Positions 8,002 to 28,361 of a DNA stretch of 32,000 nt are shown here, piece after piece. How positions within the stretch are numbered: the stretch's first letter is position 1; the number at the start of each line of letters is the position of its first letter. Source of the DNA: Promethearchaeum syntrophicum (GTDB lineage: Archaea > Asgardarchaeota > Lokiarchaeia > Sigyniarchaeales > Promethearchaeaceae); assembly GCF_008000775.2 (NCBI RefSeq), contig NZ_CP042905.2, forward strand, positions 2,550,001 through 2,582,000, written 5' to 3'. The position numbers and the translations under genes were made by a program. Below the pieces are notes generated by a model, which saw only the letters and a list, made by a program, of their open reading frames with translations, searched no databases and had not been told where the DNA came from.

Positions 8002-9402
8002 ATGTCACAAATTAAAAATGAAACAATAGTATTTTATTTAGATCTTGCAGCGAAAAAGGCAATTTTGTCGAAAAAGGATTTAGAGAAATCTATTTCAAGT
8101 TTCTTGACAGAAAAAAAAAATAAGAACCCAAAAACCGTGTTTAGCATTTTCTATTATAAAGATGACGACACACCTTTTCTAAGTGAAGAAATGCAAGATA
8201 TTAAGGAACTTACAACAATTATTCAAAATGATTGGAAAAATCGGCACGTTGCAGAAAGTAATTTTGAGAATGGATTATTTTATTGTCTTTCATTTCTTGC
8301 AGGAAAAGCAGTGGAAGCTGAAGGAACTTATCGGGTTATTTGTATTTCTGATTTACCAAGTAAAAAAAGTGCAGAATATGCAGAGGCGCTTATGGAATTA
8401 GTGGAAGTAGTCAAAACTTTCCCAACATTTATTGATATAATTCGCGTCGGGAAAGAAGATATGTACCCTGATGATGTTAAACTTCGAATTGTGAGTACAT
8501 TAACTTCAGGTGGTTTATTTTATGTTTCAGGACCAAAGGATTTTAAAGTAACTTTTATGGGATTGGCAAAAAATAAAATACTACCAGATTTACGCGAAGA
8601 AGGGGGTCAAGAAATTGACGAAGATAAAAAAATGTATTATGAAAATCTAGCTAAAGAGTTAGTTGAATTAACAGAGACCGATTTAAAATATTGCATGCTT
8701 TGCTCTAAAGAGGTTTGTGATTTTTGTAATGATCCGCTAGATGTTCTCAAAAAATGCCCAAAATGCAATAAGTCTTTTCATGAATGTTGCGGAGCCTTAT
8801 TTTCTTGGAAATTCAATATTGGATTGAAACACATTTTTAGATGTCCAGAATGTGGCACTATCCTAAAGATGGATGAGACTCTCGTTCACGAAATCAATGG
8901 AGAACCACTAGAAGAAAAAATCTTAACCCAAGAAGAATTAGAAGACTCGGTAAAAGAGGAAACATGGAGTCCAGAAGATTTAGAAGAAAAAGAACCGAAG
9001 ATAGAAAAAGATGACCTTAAAATAGAATACGAGCGTGTTACAGGTAATGAAGCATTTTCAAAAGGGAAAGAAACTAATGAATTTAAAGCATGGAAAAAAG
9101 ATCGAGAGGAATTGACAAAAGAAATGGACGAAATTGAAGAAAAACAAGCAAAGAAAATGGCATATAGACCAATGGGATATTTTGGAGCTAAACCGACAGC
9201 AATAAAAACTAAAAAACCAGTGGAAGCTGAAGAACCAAAGAAAATCGAAGAAAAAAAGAAACCAGCAGGCTCGGCTCTCGCAAGGAGAAGGGCACAAAAA
9301 CGTAATAACGGGGCTGCGAGAAATATTTTGTGTTCAGTATGTGGTAACCGAATTAGGCCGAAAGAGAAATTTTGTCCTAAATGTGGAAGCCCAACCGGCT
9401 AA
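8002..9402 (+). CDS. multidomain protein: N-terminal vWA-like alpha/beta domain, central PHD-type C4HC3 zinc finger, Lys/Glu-rich linker, C-terminal zinc ribbon
   Basis: I prefer ATG 8002, preceded by GAGGGG (7990..7995), over the TTG at 7918. The N-terminus has alternating strand/helix segments (IVFYLDL..., VFSIFYY..., YRVICISDLPS..., FIDIIRVG..., GGLFYV) as in vWA folds, but the MIDAS motif is not conserved. The centre reads CMLC-x17-CPKC-x4-H-x2-C-x17-CPEC. The C-terminus reads CSVCGNRIRPKEKFCPKCG. Confidence 0.7.
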   Translation: MSQIKNETIVFYLDLAAKKAILSKKDLEKSISSFLTEKKNKNPKTVFSIFYYKDDDTPFLSEEMQDIKELTTIIQNDWKNRHVAESNFENGLFYCLSFLAGKAVEAEGTYRVICISDLPSKKSAEYAEALMELVEVVKTFPTFIDIIRVGKEDMYPDDVKLRIVSTLTSGGLFYVSGPKDFKVTFMGLAKNKILPDLREEGGQEIDEDKKMYYENLAKELVELTETDLKYCMLCSKEVCDFCNDPLDVLKKCPKCNKSFHECCGALFSWKFNIGLKHIFRCPECGTILKMDETLVHEINGEPLEEKILTQEELEDSVKEETWSPEDLEEKEPKIEKDDLKIEYERVTGNEAFSKGKETNEFKAWKKDREELTKEMDEIEEKQAKKMAYRPMGYFGAKPTAIKTKKPVEAEEPKKIEEKKKPAGSALARRRAQKRNNGAARNILCSVCGNRIRPKEKFCPKCGSPTG

Positions 9403-9589: not shown

Positions 9590-9883
9590 TTGCTAGTTTT
9601 TATTTTATTTGAGGTGAAGAACATAACAGACAAATTTATCAAAGGTAGAAAGAAGAGAAAAGCTGAATTAAATAAGAATCGGAAGAAAGATATTCAAGAA
9701 TTAGCAGATATCAAAGTGGAATCACGTTCTAATAAACATGATACCGCACCAAATAGGTATAAGAAATATTTAGAAAATAAGAAGAAAATGAAGAGGGCTA
9801 GAGAGTTAGAAAAGAAACAAAAGCCTTATATTTGGAATAAGAAGAAAATGATGAAACGATCGTTAGCGGAAGCTGAAAAATAA
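9590..9883 (+). CDS. possible small, highly basic Lys/Arg-rich protein
   Basis: The ORF has only non-ATG starts (TTG 9590; GTG 9614 lies inside GAGGTGA). The product is strongly Lys-rich (KGRKKRKAELNKNRKK...KKKMKRARELEKKQK). It could be real or an artefact of an A-rich spacer. Confidence 0.3.
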   Translation: MLVFILFEVKNITDKFIKGRKKRKAELNKNRKKDIQELADIKVESRSNKHDTAPNRYKKYLENKKKMKRARELEKKQKPYIWNKKKMMKRSLAEAEK

Positions 9884-13401: not shown

Positions 13402-15285
13402 TCAGATAGTAAATGCGCGCTCTAATAAACCACTAAACCGTTCAGAAATAGAATAAATATCATTACCATCTTCATATTTTTTAGTGATCATATCAGAACC
13501 GAACGTTTCAATCAGATTATATAATATCATTCCGAGAGCCACTGATCCCATATATCGATTTCGTTTTATTTCTCTAAGTAATTGGCAATCTGGATGCGTA
13601 TTCCTATCCATTAATAGCCTAATTACTTCAAGTTTCACAGGTTCCGCTTGCTGAATATAATGTAAATTCTCGAGTATTGTGATTTCCCGTTGCTCTGGAT
13701 CTTCTTGAATTTCATCAAAATTATCCATTGAAGGGTTAATTTGGGTATCATACAAAGAATCTTGGAGTGAATTATTCCGAGAATTATTTGAGAAAATTTC
13801 TTGTTGTTCATTTTGGAATTTTGCATTTTCTACACTAAAGGGTGATTCACAACTATCTCCAAAATTATTCTGATTATTTTGTGAATATCCGTGCAATCCT
13901 AAATTATTTGATGAAGAATTATATAGCCGTTCCTTTAAGCTCAAACTTTTTCTTTGAAAATTATCCCAAGTAACTTGATTTTGAAAATTTTGTTTTTGCG
14001 GTTGAGCAGATCTAAAAGAATCATTAAAGGTTGGAGTGAATTGTTTTTGTTCATTTTTTTCAAGATATCCCTTTCTTATATTGGAATTTTGATTATAATT
14101 CCCAAATGGATTGATTTGATTAGATGGATTTGAATTTCTGTGTTCATTATAGTGTCCGAATTCTTTTTGAGGAGAAATATCATACTGATTTTCTTTGGAA
14201 GAATAATATTTAGGGTCGGGATTAACGTAATCCTGATTTTGAGCACTGGTAAATAGTGAGGCTGTTTGGTTCCTTGTATTAACCTTTTTGAGCTTGTTTA
14301 ACTGATTTACTTGATCGATTCGGTTCTTTTGAAAATTATTTGGAATTTGAAATCTGTTTTGATTAGCCTTTTGATTGTTTTGGTAAGAGTTTTGTTGTTT
14401 ATGATAATTATTATTCCATCCTTGTTTTTGAACATTATTTGCTCCATTTTCATTATTGGAAAAAAATCTTTTATTTCCTTTAATAGATTCACTCAATGCA
14501 TCTGTGAGAGTTGAGTCATACGGGTTTTTATGATTCATTTGGTATGGATTGATTCCTTCATCAGAACCAAAACTCAAGAATGGTGGAGCTTCCCGCCCTT
14601 GCGGAGGGAGTTTTGGTGGTGGAGGTATAGGATATTTACCTGTATAATTAGGTATTTTTTGATTTGAAATATTTGTGGTTGAATCCACTTCATTTTGGGA
14701 CATATTTTTTCTCAAATTATTGAGAAAACTACTTCCATGTCGATGGGAATTTTCAAATTTATTAGTGTGATATGCTGATTGAGTATTGAATGACTGAGAA
14801 TTTTGAGGATTATTATTTGAAATTCTTTGATTTGGATAGAAATTGTTTGAATTTTGGTTAGGCTCTCCTTGTAAATGTAATAAATGTGGAGGATTTTCAT
14901 TAAATCCATTAGAAAATTGATTTTGAAATTTTGGTTCTTTTTGTCGAGTTTGAATTTTTCTTAACATACTAGTTAAAGCACGGTTGGATTGAATTTTTGG
15001 ATTAAAATTTAACCCTTTCTTTAACATACTTTGGTTAGGATTTGTTGGTTCTTGATTAGAATTGATATGATTGTTCATATTGAATATTGGTTTACTTTGT
15101 GTTCTTATTGATCCTTGATGGTTTACACTATTTCCGTATTTTACCCTTTCTGAATGATTTTTATCGGAAACTAATGATGGATTTTCATGCCTTTCCAGTT
15201 TCCCGTCGGAATTATCAGAAGCAAATAAACGGGCCATCCCCGGTTGTAATTCATCATTTATTCCCTTTGACCATGGTTGTGTCAT
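13402..15285 (-). CDS. Asn/Gln/Ser/Pro-rich low-complexity protein with polyproline tract and a compact C-terminal domain (627 aa)
   Basis: A 1.9-kb frame opens at ATG. About the first 530 aa are dominated by N, Q, S and P (e.g. NQNSNNFYPNQRISNNNPQNSQSFNTQ). PIPPPPKLPPQGREAPPF is encoded at ~14578..14634. The last ~95 aa have ordinary composition (ITILENLHYIQQAEPVKLEVIRLLMDRNTHPDCQLLREIKRNRYMGSVALGMILYNLIETF...). Confidence 0.65.
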   Translation of the reverse strand: MTQPWSKGINDELQPGMARLFASDNSDGKLERHENPSLVSDKNHSERVKYGNSVNHQGSIRTQSKPIFNMNNHINSNQEPTNPNQSMLKKGLNFNPKIQSNRALTSMLRKIQTRQKEPKFQNQFSNGFNENPPHLLHLQGEPNQNSNNFYPNQRISNNNPQNSQSFNTQSAYHTNKFENSHRHGSSFLNNLRKNMSQNEVDSTTNISNQKIPNYTGKYPIPPPPKLPPQGREAPPFLSFGSDEGINPYQMNHKNPYDSTLTDALSESIKGNKRFFSNNENGANNVQKQGWNNNYHKQQNSYQNNQKANQNRFQIPNNFQKNRIDQVNQLNKLKKVNTRNQTASLFTSAQNQDYVNPDPKYYSSKENQYDISPQKEFGHYNEHRNSNPSNQINPFGNYNQNSNIRKGYLEKNEQKQFTPTFNDSFRSAQPQKQNFQNQVTWDNFQRKSLSLKERLYNSSSNNLGLHGYSQNNQNNFGDSCESPFSVENAKFQNEQQEIFSNNSRNNSLQDSLYDTQINPSMDNFDEIQEDPEQREITILENLHYIQQAEPVKLEVIRLLMDRNTHPDCQLLREIKRNRYMGSVALGMILYNLIETFGSDMITKKYEDGNDIYSISERFSGLLERAFTI

Positions 15286-16023: not shown

Positions 16024-16650
16024 ATGGGAACTTGGTATAATTATAATTGTGGTTCATGTGGAAAGCATTGCCACAAAAAATCAGTTTTAAGATGTAATTT
16101 TTGCAATATACCGATATGCTGGAGTTGCAAAAAGGAAGGACTTTGTCCTGATCATTACCAAAAATTGACTCCACAAGAACGGATGAGCTTAAATTCAACT
16201 CATCTAACCTTTACTTGGATGTTTCGCATTACGGTTTGGACAGGGCTCATAGGAATAATTTTAGCATTTGCAATGTGGTCAGATACAGATTCTACAAGAG
16301 GTTTTCCAATTAAAGGGATTGTATCTGGACTAATAGGTCTCGTATCTTGTTTTTTTTGCTTCAAATCTCCAGGATGGGAAGAAACAAAATTAGATAAGAT
16401 TAGAGCAACCATTAATCAAAGATTAGGAGTTTCTTCTGGGAAAATAAGTGCAGAAACCTTATTAAAAGCTGTTCAAAATTTTTCTGTAGGGTTAAATGTA
16501 GGAACTAAGCCTGTTCAAGATACGAGCATGCCTCCAACTAATTTTAATGATTCTCAGACTTCACAGGTAGATTTTATTATTTGTCCTAATTGCGCAGCTA
16601 AAATGCCAGAAGGCACCACATTTTGTGGAGTTTGTGGAAAGCGCATGTAA
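16024..16650 (+). CDS. membrane protein with N-terminal multi-Cys zinc module and C-terminal zinc ribbon
   Basis: AGGTGA lies 4 nt upstream of the ATG. The N-terminus reads CGSCGKHCH-x6-CNFC-x4-CWSC-x5-CPDH, giving about 10 Cys/His ligands. Two TM helices follow (FTWMFRITVWTGLIGIILAFAMW and GIVSGLIGLVSCFFCF). The C-terminus reads CPNCAAKMPEGTTFCGVCG. Confidence 0.65.
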   Translation: MGTWYNYNCGSCGKHCHKKSVLRCNFCNIPICWSCKKEGLCPDHYQKLTPQERMSLNSTHLTFTWMFRITVWTGLIGIILAFAMWSDTDSTRGFPIKGIVSGLIGLVSCFFCFKSPGWEETKLDKIRATINQRLGVSSGKISAETLLKAVQNFSVGLNVGTKPVQDTSMPPTNFNDSQTSQVDFIICPNCAAKMPEGTTFCGVCGKRM

Positions 16651-20034: not shown

Positions 20035-20054
20035 GATGACAAGTTAATCTAGGT
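20030..20054. repeat. IS left terminal inverted repeat
   Basis: See the mobile element entry; 23/25 match to the reverse complement of 21814..21838. Confidence 0.8.
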
Positions 20055-21819
20055 GACATTCTTGTCGTCCCTCTTTTTCCAAAGATTCAAAACTAGCCAT
20101 TCATTATATTATATTGTGTACTCCACAGCATCTTCACCCGACTATAGAACCCATTACTTATGTTGGCCCGAGTCCATCTCCCGAGCTTGTCCTATTTGTA
20201 AATCACCCATTGAATTTGCATTTGCGGATAACGGGAAAAAAGTTCATACTCTTGAAGGAATTATACATCAAGTCGTAAATTATTACAAATGCTCTAAAGC
20301 AACGTGCCCTAATTCTTCTTCATACTTCAATCCAATCAGTAGATTCGATTTTGGAAAATCATATTACGGAAAAGATGTCCTGCAATTCATTGCCGATGAG
20401 GTACTCCTCCTCGATCAGACACCTCAACAAATACACAAACGATTAAAAATCAAATATCAACTTAAGGTCAGTTTACGGACAGTTCAGCGGATTTACCGTG
20501 ATATTCTCTTAATAAAGTCAAATTCCATTGATGAAACAACGCGCAACATAATTTCCAAATCAAAAAAAATTCTTCTGGCTATTGATGGGCAAGATCCAGA
20601 TAAAGGACATGACTCCCTATGGCTTTTCACCGACCTCCTCACAAATCGTGTACTTAGGACAGTACTTGTGAAGACTATGCCACATATGAGAATTCACCAA
20701 GAAATTGAAGAGATCAAACAGGACTATGGTGTTCCAATAGTTGGGGTTGTCAGCGACAAGCAAAATAACCTAGTAAAATGTATGCGGGACAAATATCCGG
20801 ACATTCCTCACCAGTTCTGTACTTTTCACTTTTGCCAGCAAATGTGGAAACACCTGGAGATTTTCGATGGAAATCTTTATGGAAAATTGAAAAAAACGCT
20901 CATCAGAGCAGATATTCATATAAGAAACAACTCAAAACCGATAAATTTTGAAGGAAAGGGATTCCTCCCGGTACGGGAAGTTTTTCGTGGGATTGACAGT
21001 GATATTGAACATTTAACTCAAATTAAGTCAACAAAATTCCAATTTCTCCGCGGTTTATGGCTTTTCCGCAATCTGACACGATATACTGTCAAAATGGAGG
21101 TTTATACAACAATCATGGACAAGCAACTCCGCATTGAGAAAATCTTCTGTAAATTTCACGCCAAATTAAAAAAAGTATTGAAAGACACCAGATCACAATT
21201 TTTTGAAACCCTGTTCCTCTATGATTCTTTTAAGTTAATTTACCAACGTCTTTACAGTGAATTGTCTACCCATGCTGACAAGCAGCAAGAGCTTGACAAT
21301 ATTTTTGGTCGACTTTGGGGCTATGTCAGAACTTTAAACCCCGATTTAGAGATGGAAGGATTGAAAATGATTCCCCTGCAATCATCCCATTCTCTCGAAT
21401 CCATCTTGGGTGAATGGGTTAGGTTATGGAATTCGTACTTACCAGGATTATTTTCATATTATGGATTCCCTCGGGATATTCGCACGAATATCCTCCAAGA
21501 ACAAGCCTTTAGTCAACAGAAAGCGAAGTTAGTAAATCGTCTGAAGCGGAAAGATGTTAGCTATTTTATCAAAACACGCGGAGACCTTTATCTTAGGCTT
21601 ATACATTCTTCAGAATCGGAAAAATCTGCTTCTATCGTCAACGAATACTCGGATCACCTGATTCAATCACTACGGAAGGAGTTTCAAAAACGAATTTCTG
21701 AAGAAACATCACATTGGTTAGCAAAAGATAAAGAATTTGCTGGATATGAAGAAGTCCTTCAAGAATACCATCCAAATTGGCGTAAACTCTTACTAAAAAA
21801 GAAGTTACGAGGGACTTAG
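20053..21819 (+). CDS. DDE-type transposase with N-terminal zinc-binding motif (IS256/Mutator-like signature)
   Basis: 588-aa ORF filling the IS. It has CPICKSP...YYKCSKATCPN Cys pairs. Candidate acidic residues are LLAIDGQDP and GVVSDKQNNLVKCMRDKYPDIPHQFCTFH; the S-D...fP...Q-x-C-x-x-H pattern is typical of IS256/MULE transposases. There is no ATG near the 5' end, so the start is uncertain (GTG 20053 or GTG 20116). The stop lies inside the right TIR. Confidence 0.7.
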   Translation: MTFLSSLFFQRFKTSHSLYYIVYSTASSPDYRTHYLCWPESISRACPICKSPIEFAFADNGKKVHTLEGIIHQVVNYYKCSKATCPNSSSYFNPISRFDFGKSYYGKDVLQFIADEVLLLDQTPQQIHKRLKIKYQLKVSLRTVQRIYRDILLIKSNSIDETTRNIISKSKKILLAIDGQDPDKGHDSLWLFTDLLTNRVLRTVLVKTMPHMRIHQEIEEIKQDYGVPIVGVVSDKQNNLVKCMRDKYPDIPHQFCTFHFCQQMWKHLEIFDGNLYGKLKKTLIRADIHIRNNSKPINFEGKGFLPVREVFRGIDSDIEHLTQIKSTKFQFLRGLWLFRNLTRYTVKMEVYTTIMDKQLRIEKIFCKFHAKLKKVLKDTRSQFFETLFLYDSFKLIYQRLYSELSTHADKQQELDNIFGRLWGYVRTLNPDLEMEGLKMIPLQSSHSLESILGEWVRLWNSYLPGLFSYYGFPRDIRTNILQEQAFSQQKAKLVNRLKRKDVSYFIKTRGDLYLRLIHSSESEKSASIVNEYSDHLIQSLRKEFQKRISEETSHWLAKDKEFAGYEEVLQEYHPNWRKLLLKKKLRGT

Positions 21820-27446: not shown

Positions 27447-27491
27447 ATGTGTCAACTTTATTTGACTTAGATGTGTCAACAAAACTTGACA
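27447..27491. promoter_or_regulatory. two tandem 20-bp repeats, ATGTGTCAAC-N5-TTGAC, each containing a GTCAA/TTGAC palindrome; candidate XRE operator pair
   Basis: Repeat 1 is at 27447..27466 (ATGTGTCAACTTTATTTGAC) and repeat 2 at 27471..27490 (ATGTGTCAACAAAACTTGAC), a 24-bp period. Repeat 2 extends to a 6-bp dyad, TGTCAA-N6-TTGACA. The site ends 19 bp upstream of ATG 27510. Confidence 0.4.
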
Positions 27492-27509
27492 TTATCAAAA
27501 AAAAATATT

Positions 27510-28361
27510 ATGGAAAATCGAAAAAAAATGGAAAAAAAAGAACATAGTAGGTTCGGTATTGAACCTAGTTATTTAACAAGCCAAATGATTGGAAGTTTTT
27601 TTGCATCAATCTTCGTTGGATTAGGAATTTATGGTGTCGGGTGGCTTATCGTCTTTATTATTCTGGACGATGGTGGAACACCTCCAATAGTTTTATGGCC
27701 AATAATTTGGGGATTAATTTTTGGATTTGCGTTGATATTATTGACAATGACATTCATATTCGAAGGAATGTACTATAGAAATTTTTCATATGAAATTTCA
27801 GAAAAATTCATAACAATTCGCTATGGTCGTTTGACTCGAACAAAGACAACCATTCCCTTTAGTCGGATACAAAATATTGCTATCCACCAAAACATAAGGG
27901 ATAGATGGTTAAATATCTATACTGTAAAAATAGAAACAGCTGGAAGTTCTGCTGCAATGTCTTCTTCACAGAAAGGTGTAGTACGACCCGAAGGGTATAT
28001 TCCTGCTATTAGAGATCCAAAAGAACTTGAAGGTATGATCAATCGGTTGGTTCATCGATACACGCAAGATATTCCTAAAACAGTTCAAGATAAAGTTTTT
28101 ATGGATAGTAATGTTGCATTTGATGAATTTATAGCATATTTTATTGCAAAAATGCGTGAAAAAGATCAATTAAATACAAAAGTTAAGATATTAAGAGAAA
28201 ATACCGGTTGGAGTCAAGAACAATTGGCAGAAAAACTTGGAGTGTCGCGTACTACTGTAGAATATTTAGAAGCAGGGGAATATGTTCCTTCTTTAACTTT
28301 AGCATTGCGAATTTCACATATCTTTAACGTTTCAATTGAAGATATATTTGAGCTTGAATAA
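27510..28361 (+). CDS. membrane-anchored bacterial-PH (bPH_2/YdbS-like) domain fused to a C-terminal XRE-family HTH
   Basis: I prefer ATG 27510 because the 27471 start would lie inside the repeat element. Two TM helices are followed by the bPH_2 pattern YYRNFSYEISEKFITIRYGRLTRTKTTIPFSRIQNIAIHQNIRDRWLNIYTVKIETAG. The C-terminus is a Cro/C1-type HTH: LRENTGWSQEQLAEKLGVSRTTVEYLEAGEYVPSLTLALRISHIFNVSIEDIFELE. Confidence 0.75.
   Translation: MENRKKMEKKEHSRFGIEPSYLTSQMIGSFFASIFVGLGIYGVGWLIVFIILDDGGTPPIVLWPIIWGLIFGFALILLTMTFIFEGMYYRNFSYEISEKFITIRYGRLTRTKTTIPFSRIQNIAIHQNIRDRWLNIYTVKIETAGSSAAMSSSQKGVVRPEGYIPAIRDPKELEGMINRLVHRYTQDIPKTVQDKVFMDSNVAFDEFIAYFIAKMREKDQLNTKVKILRENTGWSQEQLAEKLGVSRTTVEYLEAGEYVPSLTLALRISHIFNVSIEDIFELE

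Follow-up and report, generated by a model that had tools for sequence, protein, structure and literature searches.

Von Willebrand factor A (vWA) domains, RING fingers and zinc ribbons are all well known as parts, and eukaryotes use them in TFIIH, the proteasome and ubiquitin ligases, with vWA-plus-RING architectures already described among their proteins. In the p44/Ssl1 and p34/Tfb4 subunits of TFIIH, an intracellular vWA domain is followed by Cys-rich zinc modules that include a RING-like finger, and in the plant RGLG proteins a copine-type vWA domain precedes a C-terminal RING-HC finger, the whole acting as a working E3 ubiquitin ligase. To our knowledge, the core TFIIH subunits, except for the helicases XPB and XPD, are regarded as eukaryotic inventions. 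The closest known relatives of eukaryotes are the Asgard archaea, which, like related archaea, possess E2-type conjugating enzymes, and conserved Asgard-only families made of "eukaryotic" parts are candidate precursors of eukaryotic machinery. Here, we describe one such family from a gene of Promethearchaeum syntrophicum. This gene lies in a stretch of 32,000 nucleotides (contig NZ_CP042905.2, positions 2,550,001 to 2,582,000 of the forward strand), hereafter the window, which has a G+C content of about 30%. It encodes a protein of 466 residues with the following parts, given in window coordinates:

8002 to 9402, + strand: coding sequence of the 466-residue vWA-RING-linker-zinc-ribbon protein, from the list of open reading frames (ORFs), the ATG start and the stop codon at 9400-9402

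8002 to 8586, + strand: vWA domain, residues ~1-195, with a degenerate metal ion-dependent adhesion site (MIDAS; D14-L-A-A-K18), from AlphaFold2 (AF2), Foldseek, hhalign and conservation

8686 to 8874, + strand: predicted cross-braced C4HC3 RING-type zinc domain, residues 229-291, from conservation, the domain model, Foldseek and profiles

8899 to 9321, + strand: Lys/Glu-rich, largely disordered linker, residues 300-440, from composition, the predicted local distance difference test (pLDDT) and a gap-rich alignment

9175 to 9186, + strand: conserved motif G-[FY]-F-G (G392-Y-F394-G395) within the linker, from conservation

9331 to 9399, + strand: C-terminal C4 zinc ribbon (C444, C447, C458, C461), from Pfam and conservation

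We are highly confident of the domain anatomy and of the assignment to an Asgard-restricted family, and we interpret the product as a cytosolic multi-zinc scaffold protein. The public protein collection holds the identical 466-residue product (P0001) and 97 homologues, and the homologues in an alignment of 48 sequences (A1) begin at a residue equivalent to the start of the window protein. The family is a small one, as a profile search with the RING domain against 1.84 billion representative proteins found 142 sequences, and conservation was read in two alignments, that of the 48 homologues and then one of 139. The named members are all from Asgard archaea (Promethearchaeia/Lokiarchaeota, Thor-, Hod-, Hermod-, Odin-, Hel- and Sigynarchaeota), and it is only there, as judged by these names, that the family is found. 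The closest relatives of the window protein are encoded by Promethearchaeum metagenome-assembled genomes (MAGs; 79-83% identity), followed by those of Lokiarchaeum ossiferum (54%) and Harpocratesius (49%). There are two paralogues per genome, arranged in tandem in 62 of the 84 loci. The tandem paralogues, which share 36% identity, fall into two clean clades, T1 and T2, and the window protein belongs to a third clade (Lokiarchaeum-type), whose two paralogues are dispersed. Literature searches on Asgard archaea combined with vWA or RING returned no paper describing this family. What we consider new is the Asgard-only family with its obligate paralogue pairs, a probable three-zinc variant of the RING with a unique signature, and a conserved neighbourhood marked by a protein of ~660 residues, named here P661.

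The N-terminal half had been described in a first-pass annotation, made from the sequence alone, as a vWA fold with a degenerate MIDAS and a layout recalling either p44/Ssl1 or the Sec23/24 trunk. The fold itself is well supported, since the AF2 model built with the 48 homologues reaches a confident pLDDT of ~90 across residues 1-190 and has a beta-alpha-beta organization, and Foldseek matches this full model to vWA domains throughout, with E-values from 3e-11 to 5e-7. These matches are led by p44/Ssl1 (E 3e-11), followed by Tfb4/p34, Rpn10 (E 1.8e-8), ITIH1 and the A1 domain of vWF, and the template modelling (TM) score between the AF2 model and the isolated vWA domains of p44 and Rpn10 is 0.73-0.75. 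The resemblance to p44/Ssl1 therefore holds at the level of the fold. The vWA domain of Rpn10 is likewise among the best structural matches (TM 0.66-0.74), with the difference that the window protein has no ubiquitin-interacting motifs. The likeness to the Sec23/24 trunk was dropped, since no Sec23/24 chain is present in the top 50 fold matches, and neither a barrel nor a gelsolin domain was found in the AF2 model or in the Pfam scan of the window protein.

At the sequence level, the vWA assignment is reached through intermediates. A family profile restricted to the vWA domain gave no match at E<=10 among PDB sequences, a weak Pfam VWA match was found in five of the 48 family members, and a single-sequence PDB search with the window protein returned nothing but spurious matches to C2H2 arrays, caused by the CxxC spacing. 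Among the weaker matches of the RING profile, there were Asgard relatives with N-termini that score above the thresholds of Pfam VWA_2 (7.5e-20) and VWA (1.3e-12). Upon comparison by hhalign, A1 matches one of these relatives with an E-value of 5.5e-17 and a 21-sequence alignment of them with 6e-37, over 277-290 columns that cover both the vWA domain and the RING. This bridge between sequences settles the vWA assignment, in an indirect manner.

The degenerate MIDAS was also correctly recognized. The sequence DLAAK is present at residues 14-18, and the window protein thus fails the D-x-S-x-S pattern of an intact site. Across the 139 sequences, the clade of the window protein (ACT) has D-L-A-x-K, with Ser as an alternative at the third position (D-L-A/S-x-K), and clade T1 has D-L-T-K-D/E. 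The relatives P0328 and P0315 keep the canonical D-I-S-R-S. Residues D14, S86, E89-N90-G91-L92 and D117-x-P119-S120 are invariant in all clades, and this face of the vWA domain is conserved even where metal binding was probably lost.

The central zinc domain had been proposed to be a finger of the PHD type, and thus an essentially eukaryotic feature. The spacing on which this was based is correct as read from the translation, C231-x2-C234-x17-C252-x2-C255-x4-H260-x2-C263-x17-C281-x2-C284, with F279 placed two residues before C281. Ligands C231, C234, C252, C255, H260, C281 and C284 are invariant in the 139 homologues, and position 263 is a Cys, replaced by His in two of them. Since the eight ligands are kept among homologues sharing only 30-40% identity, the pattern goes far beyond chance. 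It satisfies the PHD consensus, C-x2-C-x(8-21)-C-x2-4-C-x4-5-H-x2-C-x(12-46)-C-x2-C with an aromatic residue two positions before ligand 7. The register with the PHD of MTF2 is visible in the profile alignment, and the PHDs of MTF2, WSTF, MLL and DPF3 share with the family both the C4HC3 spacing and the aromatic residues before the His and two before ligand 7.

Even though the ligand pattern stands, the PHD type is not the best assignment for the fold. The model of residues 222-304 alone (pLDDT 88) has a beta-beta-alpha-beta topology, in which two short strands (249-251 and 258-260) lead to a helix (261-270) immediately behind H260/C263, a strand at 278-280, and then a final strand and helix. 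Both AF2 models predict this helix of 10 residues between ligands 6 and 7. Such a helix is a feature of RINGs, and in its length the family is unlike PHDs. In the Foldseek search with the zinc-domain model, RINGs come first (TRIM2 at 0.009, FANCL, AO7, Slx1, NSE1 and TRIM23), with PHDs interleaved among them (DPF3b, MLL1 PHD3, MLL3 PHD6 and BAZ2B). The profile matches in PDB sequences are mixed as well, starting with the MTF2 PHD (0.005), NSE1 (0.02), the C1 domain of RAF1 (0.035) and the WSTF PHD (0.08), followed by APC11 and RBX2, and including the PHDs of KDM5 and AIRE. As for Pfam, PHD (PF00628) has no match at E<=1 in the 48 family members. In the Asgard relatives, the RING scores (zf-ANAPC11 with 31.5 bits against a cut-off of 25, zf-RING_2 with up to 27.0 bits, and Prok-RING_1) at least equal those of PHD, the best of which is 2.5e-4, with 7e-4 in P0271. 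According to the predicted beta-beta-alpha topology, the fold matches and the Pfam matches of the relatives, we favour a C4HC3 RING-type finger with PHD-like spacing over a PHD finger. This finger would be cross-braced rather than formed by two separate ribbons, since the model is unlike two ribbons and the better fold matches are all RINGs or PHDs.

The C4HC3 arrangement has been reported for prokaryotic RINGs (PMC11354881), and therefore it cannot be taken as essentially eukaryotic. The closest fingers would be the C-terminal RING of Slx1, NSE1 and Prok-RING_1, which share with the family the C4HC3 order, the cross-brace with a central helix as predicted here, and mutual matches. Contrary to them, the family has an additional CxxC and C262, with a probable third zinc, and a signature found nowhere else, N272-I-G-x-x-x-I-F-R-C-P, which runs into ligand 7.

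These additional cysteines had been overlooked, and the count of eight ligands was therefore incomplete. A near-invariant second CxxC (C239 and C242) is located within the x17 loop, and C262 directly precedes C263, so that the zinc domain holds 10 Cys and one His instead of eight ligands. The three cysteines are kept in 135 of the 139 sequences and vanish together in the exceptions, where the canonical eight remain: P0059 is without C239, C242 and C262, and the type represented by P0052/P0062 is without C242, D247 and C262, with C263 changed to His. In addition, D247 is aligned with a Cys in the Helarchaeota relative P0328, and in the relatives P0270 and P0271 the whole insert and C262 are missing, leaving a plain C4HC3. 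This joint loss points to a third zinc site, probably formed by C239, C242, D247 and C262. An alternative register starting at C239/C242, as seen in some of the zf-RING_2 alignments, was rejected, since the relatives and variants without the insert retain C231/C234, which marks these as the canonical first pair.

The remaining part of the protein agrees with the earlier description of a Lys/Glu-rich disordered linker and a terminal zinc ribbon. Residues 301-440 are 21% Glu and 18% Lys, with a pLDDT mostly below 50 and a few isolated helices in the AF2 model, and this region is gap-rich and poorly conserved in A1. Within it, the G-[FY]-F-G motif stands out, with G392 and F394 kept without exception, or almost so, in the 139 sequences and in every clade. 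The tail located just upstream of the ribbon is rich in Arg and Lys. The ribbon itself passes Pfam Zn_Ribbon_1 (PF13240) with 27.4 bits against a cut-off of 25, over residues 444-464, and its four Cys are invariant in both alignments. A ribbon of the same Pfam family (25.9 bits) closes a 208-residue protein encoded elsewhere in the window (16024 to 16650, + strand), which also has Cys pairs at its N-terminus; it was considered as a paralogue and rejected, being unrelated to the vWA-RING protein beyond the ribbon.

Regarding the function, the family joins an intracellular vWA domain of the p44/p34/Rpn10 type to a RING-type finger, with surfaces that are invariant across several Asgard lineages, whose records carry the labels Loki-, Thor-, Hod-, Hermod- and Odinarchaeota. 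Our best explanation for the whole is a vWA-RING adaptor or E3-like scaffold, to which we would give slightly less than an even chance. The specific mechanism, in which the protein would act as an adaptor or E3-like ligase together with its paralogue, is proposed more tentatively still. The conserved face of the vWA domain would hold one protein partner, and the RING would dock a second one, for which an E2-type ubiquitin(-like) conjugating enzyme is the most plausible candidate, with the invariant N-I-G...I-F-R-C-P face as the partner-binding surface. The linker motif and the ribbon would give a tethered third contact, and the two paralogues may act as a heteromer.

Contacts between RINGs and E2 enzymes normally involve a hydrophobic residue before ligand 2, an aromatic residue in the helix, a Pro after ligand 7, and an Arg or Lys linchpin after ligand 8. 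Three of these four features are kept in the family: position 233, before ligand 2, is hydrophobic in all 139 sequences (Phe, Leu or Ile, with one Val); an aromatic residue, F/Y267, is found four positions past ligand 6; and P282 follows ligand 7 in 57 of 57 T1 sequences. Archaeal cascades of E1, E2 and RING proteins exist and have been reconstituted (PMC5654768). If the family were a true E3-like adaptor, the archaeal ubiquitin toolkit would extend past the small RING proteins studied so far. The probable three-zinc variant of the RING also represents a clean biochemical target, with orthologues carried by the cultured Lokiarchaeum ossiferum and Promethearchaeum.

Several points weigh against this explanation. 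The fourth contact position is altered, since the linchpin at residue 285, after the last ligand, is Gly, Asp or Glu in the 139 sequences, and not basic. The only Pfam domain that passes in the window protein is the zinc ribbon, with no match to vWA, RING or PHD, and within the family zf-RING_2 (15.5 bits), zf-RING-like (14.4 bits) and Prok-RING_1 (best E 1e-3) are all below their cut-offs. The Foldseek matches of the 83-residue zinc domain reach a probability of 0.97, with E-values of only 0.009-0.3, which are weak because the domain is so small. The predicted cross-brace is read from fold matches, and the probable third zinc site from covariation between sequences, rather than from geometry in either case. 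No ubiquitin-system gene is located near any family member in the 84 loci. Finally, the RING-like fingers of p44 and NSE1 are mainly interaction modules, and ligase activity need not follow from such a fold.

The resemblance to p44 suggests a different explanation, in which the family and its Asgard relatives would be archaeal counterparts of p44/Ssl1 and p34/Tfb4, pairing with each other and clamping or regulating a helicase of the XPD/XPB type during transcription or repair. We regard it as unlikely, after weighing the following evidence. In the Foldseek search with the full model, the top ~20 matches are p44/Ssl1 and then Tfb4/p34 (E 3e-11 to 1e-8), over 280-360 columns that reach the zinc region. 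The presence of two paralogues per genome recalls the p44-p34 pair, and the neighbouring protein P661 has a weak winged-helix signal. By eye, a C-x2-C-x3-F-[C/H]-x2-C motif is common to p44 and the family.

The Asgard relatives encompass the P0301 group, found in Sigyn-, Hod- and Lokiarchaeota, whose members have ~400-420 residues, a canonical vWA domain with an intact D-x-S-x-S site, and two RING-like fingers (for example L085:7001-8257, L086:7001-8251 and L087:7001-8254, with Ssl1 and Tfb4 among their precomputed Pfam matches), and P0328, a protein of 686 residues from Helarchaeota. Both are homologous to the family over the vWA domain and the first RING, and share with it the end of the finger, F-R-C-P-x-C-x-x-L-L-[KR], and the Asgard-only distribution, whereas in place of the linker and the single ribbon they carry either one more RING-like finger or long extensions at the C-terminus. 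In several of the less derived relatives of ~400 residues, which have the length and domain order of p44, the score with Pfam Ssl1 lies above the cut-off of 27 bits (34.3 at most), and Tfb4 is touched as well. By hhalign, these relatives match the p44 profile with an E-value of 1.2e-16 over 317 columns. Nevertheless, their scores with the generic VWA_2/VWA families are far above that with Ssl1 (72 against 31 bits), they match Rpn10 too (E 1.2e-8, compared to 7.8e-12 with the vWA domain of p44), and their zinc region alone shows no significant similarity to p44 (E 0.0037, probability 9%).

For the window family itself, taken as alignment A1 or A3, a direct hhalign comparison shows no significant similarity to p44 (E 0.013-0.019, with a probability of 2-3%). 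This comparison used human p44 and a 14-sequence vertebrate profile, which is shallow because the p44 homologue search returned only vertebrates. The Rpn10 control is similarly weak (E 0.069), and therefore no p44-specific claim can be made for the family. In addition, Pfam Ssl1 (PF04056) is absent from the window protein and the 48 members, with no match to PF07975 either. The zinc modules also differ: in the family, a RING precedes a ribbon, whereas p44 has a C4 finger followed by a RING-like finger; the RING of the family is C4HC3 with an inserted, probable third site, and that of p44 is C4C4; and the 140-residue disordered linker and terminal ribbon have no counterpart in p44. The genomic context is not of the TFIIH type, with no helicase or repair gene near family members in the 84 loci. 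The genes of the P0301 group are always downstream of those for a ~1300-residue protein and a ~990-residue FtsX-domain protein, adjoining an ABC-2 permease, so that membrane genes of the FtsX/ABC type, and no TFIIH-like partners or helicases, are found beside them.

What links the family to p44 is therefore a common vWA subtype and a similar architecture, orthology being unproven. A broader version, in which the Asgard vWA-RING superfamily would be the archaeal stock of the vWA domains of p44/Ssl1, p34/Tfb4 and perhaps Rpn10, with the window family as a derived branch, also seems improbable to us, if a little less so. In that case, the two paralogues per genome would prefigure the p44-p34 heterodimer. 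Were the link to p44 real, the core of TFIIH would have its root in the archaea.

On one side of the vWA-RING gene, the nearest genes are transcribed divergently:

7864 to 8001: divergent intergenic region of 138 bp, A/T-rich, common to the vWA-RING and GTPase genes, read from the sequence

7279 to 7863, - strand: Rab-like small GTPase, divergent neighbour (Pfam Ras, 2.4e-44)

6073 to 7212, - strand: eukaryote-like actin, downstream of the GTPase gene (Pfam Actin, 4.6e-83; PDB actins, 2e-73)

Among PDB entries, the GTPase is best matched by a Thorarchaeota Rab (7ezb, 7e-34), with Sec4 and Rab1 ranking behind. The GTPase gene has a TTG start, and the protein carries an acidic N-terminal extension, MSEEKEKEEKE. 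The 138-bp gap noted in the first-pass annotation was confirmed. On the vWA-RING side, it contains a Shine-Dalgarno-like GAGGGG at 7990-7995, 6 nt before the ATG, and a TATA-like A/T-rich block at 7960-7977, ~30 nt before it; on the other side, AGGTGA precedes the TTG start of the GTPase gene. A scan for bacterial-type promoters and terminators stayed at chance level and is uninformative for this region. Rfam (at the gathering threshold) and tRNA scans of the whole 32 kb found no family and no tRNA gene.

This arrangement would be expected if the protein acted on the Rab-like GTPase and the actin beside it, as their effector or regulator, in the manner of a Sec23/24-trunk-like or cytoskeletal adaptor that is co-regulated with them from the shared divergent promoter. 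The pairing is real in the window, and the order of the 95-residue ORF, actin, GTPase, divergent vWA-RING gene and 97-residue ORF is kept in the Promethearchaeum MAGs, both Lokiarchaeum ossiferum assemblies, Harpocratesius and one other MAG, with proteins of the block 49-83% identical across these loci. In this Loki-type clade, one paralogue is always divergent to the GTPase and actin genes. However, the linkage is limited to the Lokiarchaeum/Promethearchaeum/Harpocratesius clade, in whose genomes the sister paralogue (L002/L012) has neither actin nor GTPase nearby, and it is missing from ~70 other loci, where the tandem adjoins P661, a phosphatidyltransferase and a LOR-family gene. The collinear block of the Loki clade also keeps an unrelated hydrolase, a major facilitator superfamily (MFS) transporter and a 627-residue protein, which suggests that the adjacency of actin and GTPase may be inherited collinearity rather than an operon. 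Together with the absence of Sec23/24 from the fold matches, this makes a role as effector of the GTPase and actin rather improbable.

Outside the Loki-type clade, the neighbourhood is a different one. In 54 loci, the gene for P661 precedes the tandem vWA-RING pair in divergent orientation (for example L003:2955-4847, - strand), and beyond it there are genes for a CDP-alcohol phosphatidyltransferase and a LOR-family protein. P661 belongs to no Pfam family. Its N-terminus gives a weak winged-helix signal (HxlR/TrmB-like; PDB 7kd3, E 0.03); it also contains a long coiled coil, and its conserved C-terminal domain carries an invariant GFSVxLHxxR block. It is likely a functional partner of the vWA-RING family.

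The last explanation, a reader of nucleic acids or chromatin with a true PHD-type peptide-binding finger and a basic tail and ribbon binding RNA or DNA, is very improbable, since, even though the spacing with its F-H-x2-C motif, the MTF2, WSTF, KDM5 and AIRE matches, the PHD score of P0271 and the Arg/Lys-rich tail speak in its favour, the family has no Pfam PHD match, the helix between ligands 6 and 7 and the fold ranking point to a RING, and no chromatin context or nucleic-acid-related neighbours were found.

Other features of the window deserve a brief description. The two small ORFs that flank the actin/GTPase/vWA-RING block encode 95 residues (5741 to 6028, + strand) and 97 residues, very rich in Lys and Arg (9590 to 9883, + strand). 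They are 47-89% identical in the Promethearchaeum, Lokiarchaeum and Harpocratesius loci, and are thus probably real genes. The 627-residue ORF (13402 to 15285, - strand), whose position is kept in the synteny block of the Loki clade, is mostly of low complexity and rich in Asn and Gln, and its conservation with Lokiarchaeum ossiferum (46% identity, E 2e-28) is confined to the ~100 residues at the C-terminus. This ORF was considered as a homologue of P661 and rejected, as there is no similarity. Further away, an ORF of 588 residues (20053 to 21819, + strand) has a weak match to MULE transposases (E 1.6e-4) and sits in the only stretch of the window with an elevated G+C content (0.36-0.38 at 20-22 kb), pointing to the remnant of a mobile element. 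Finally, a protein of 296 residues (27471 to 28361, + strand) combines a PH domain of the bacterial type (bPH_2, 7.8e-19) with HTH_3, a DNA-binding domain, at its C-terminus, and possibly has an N-terminal membrane segment.

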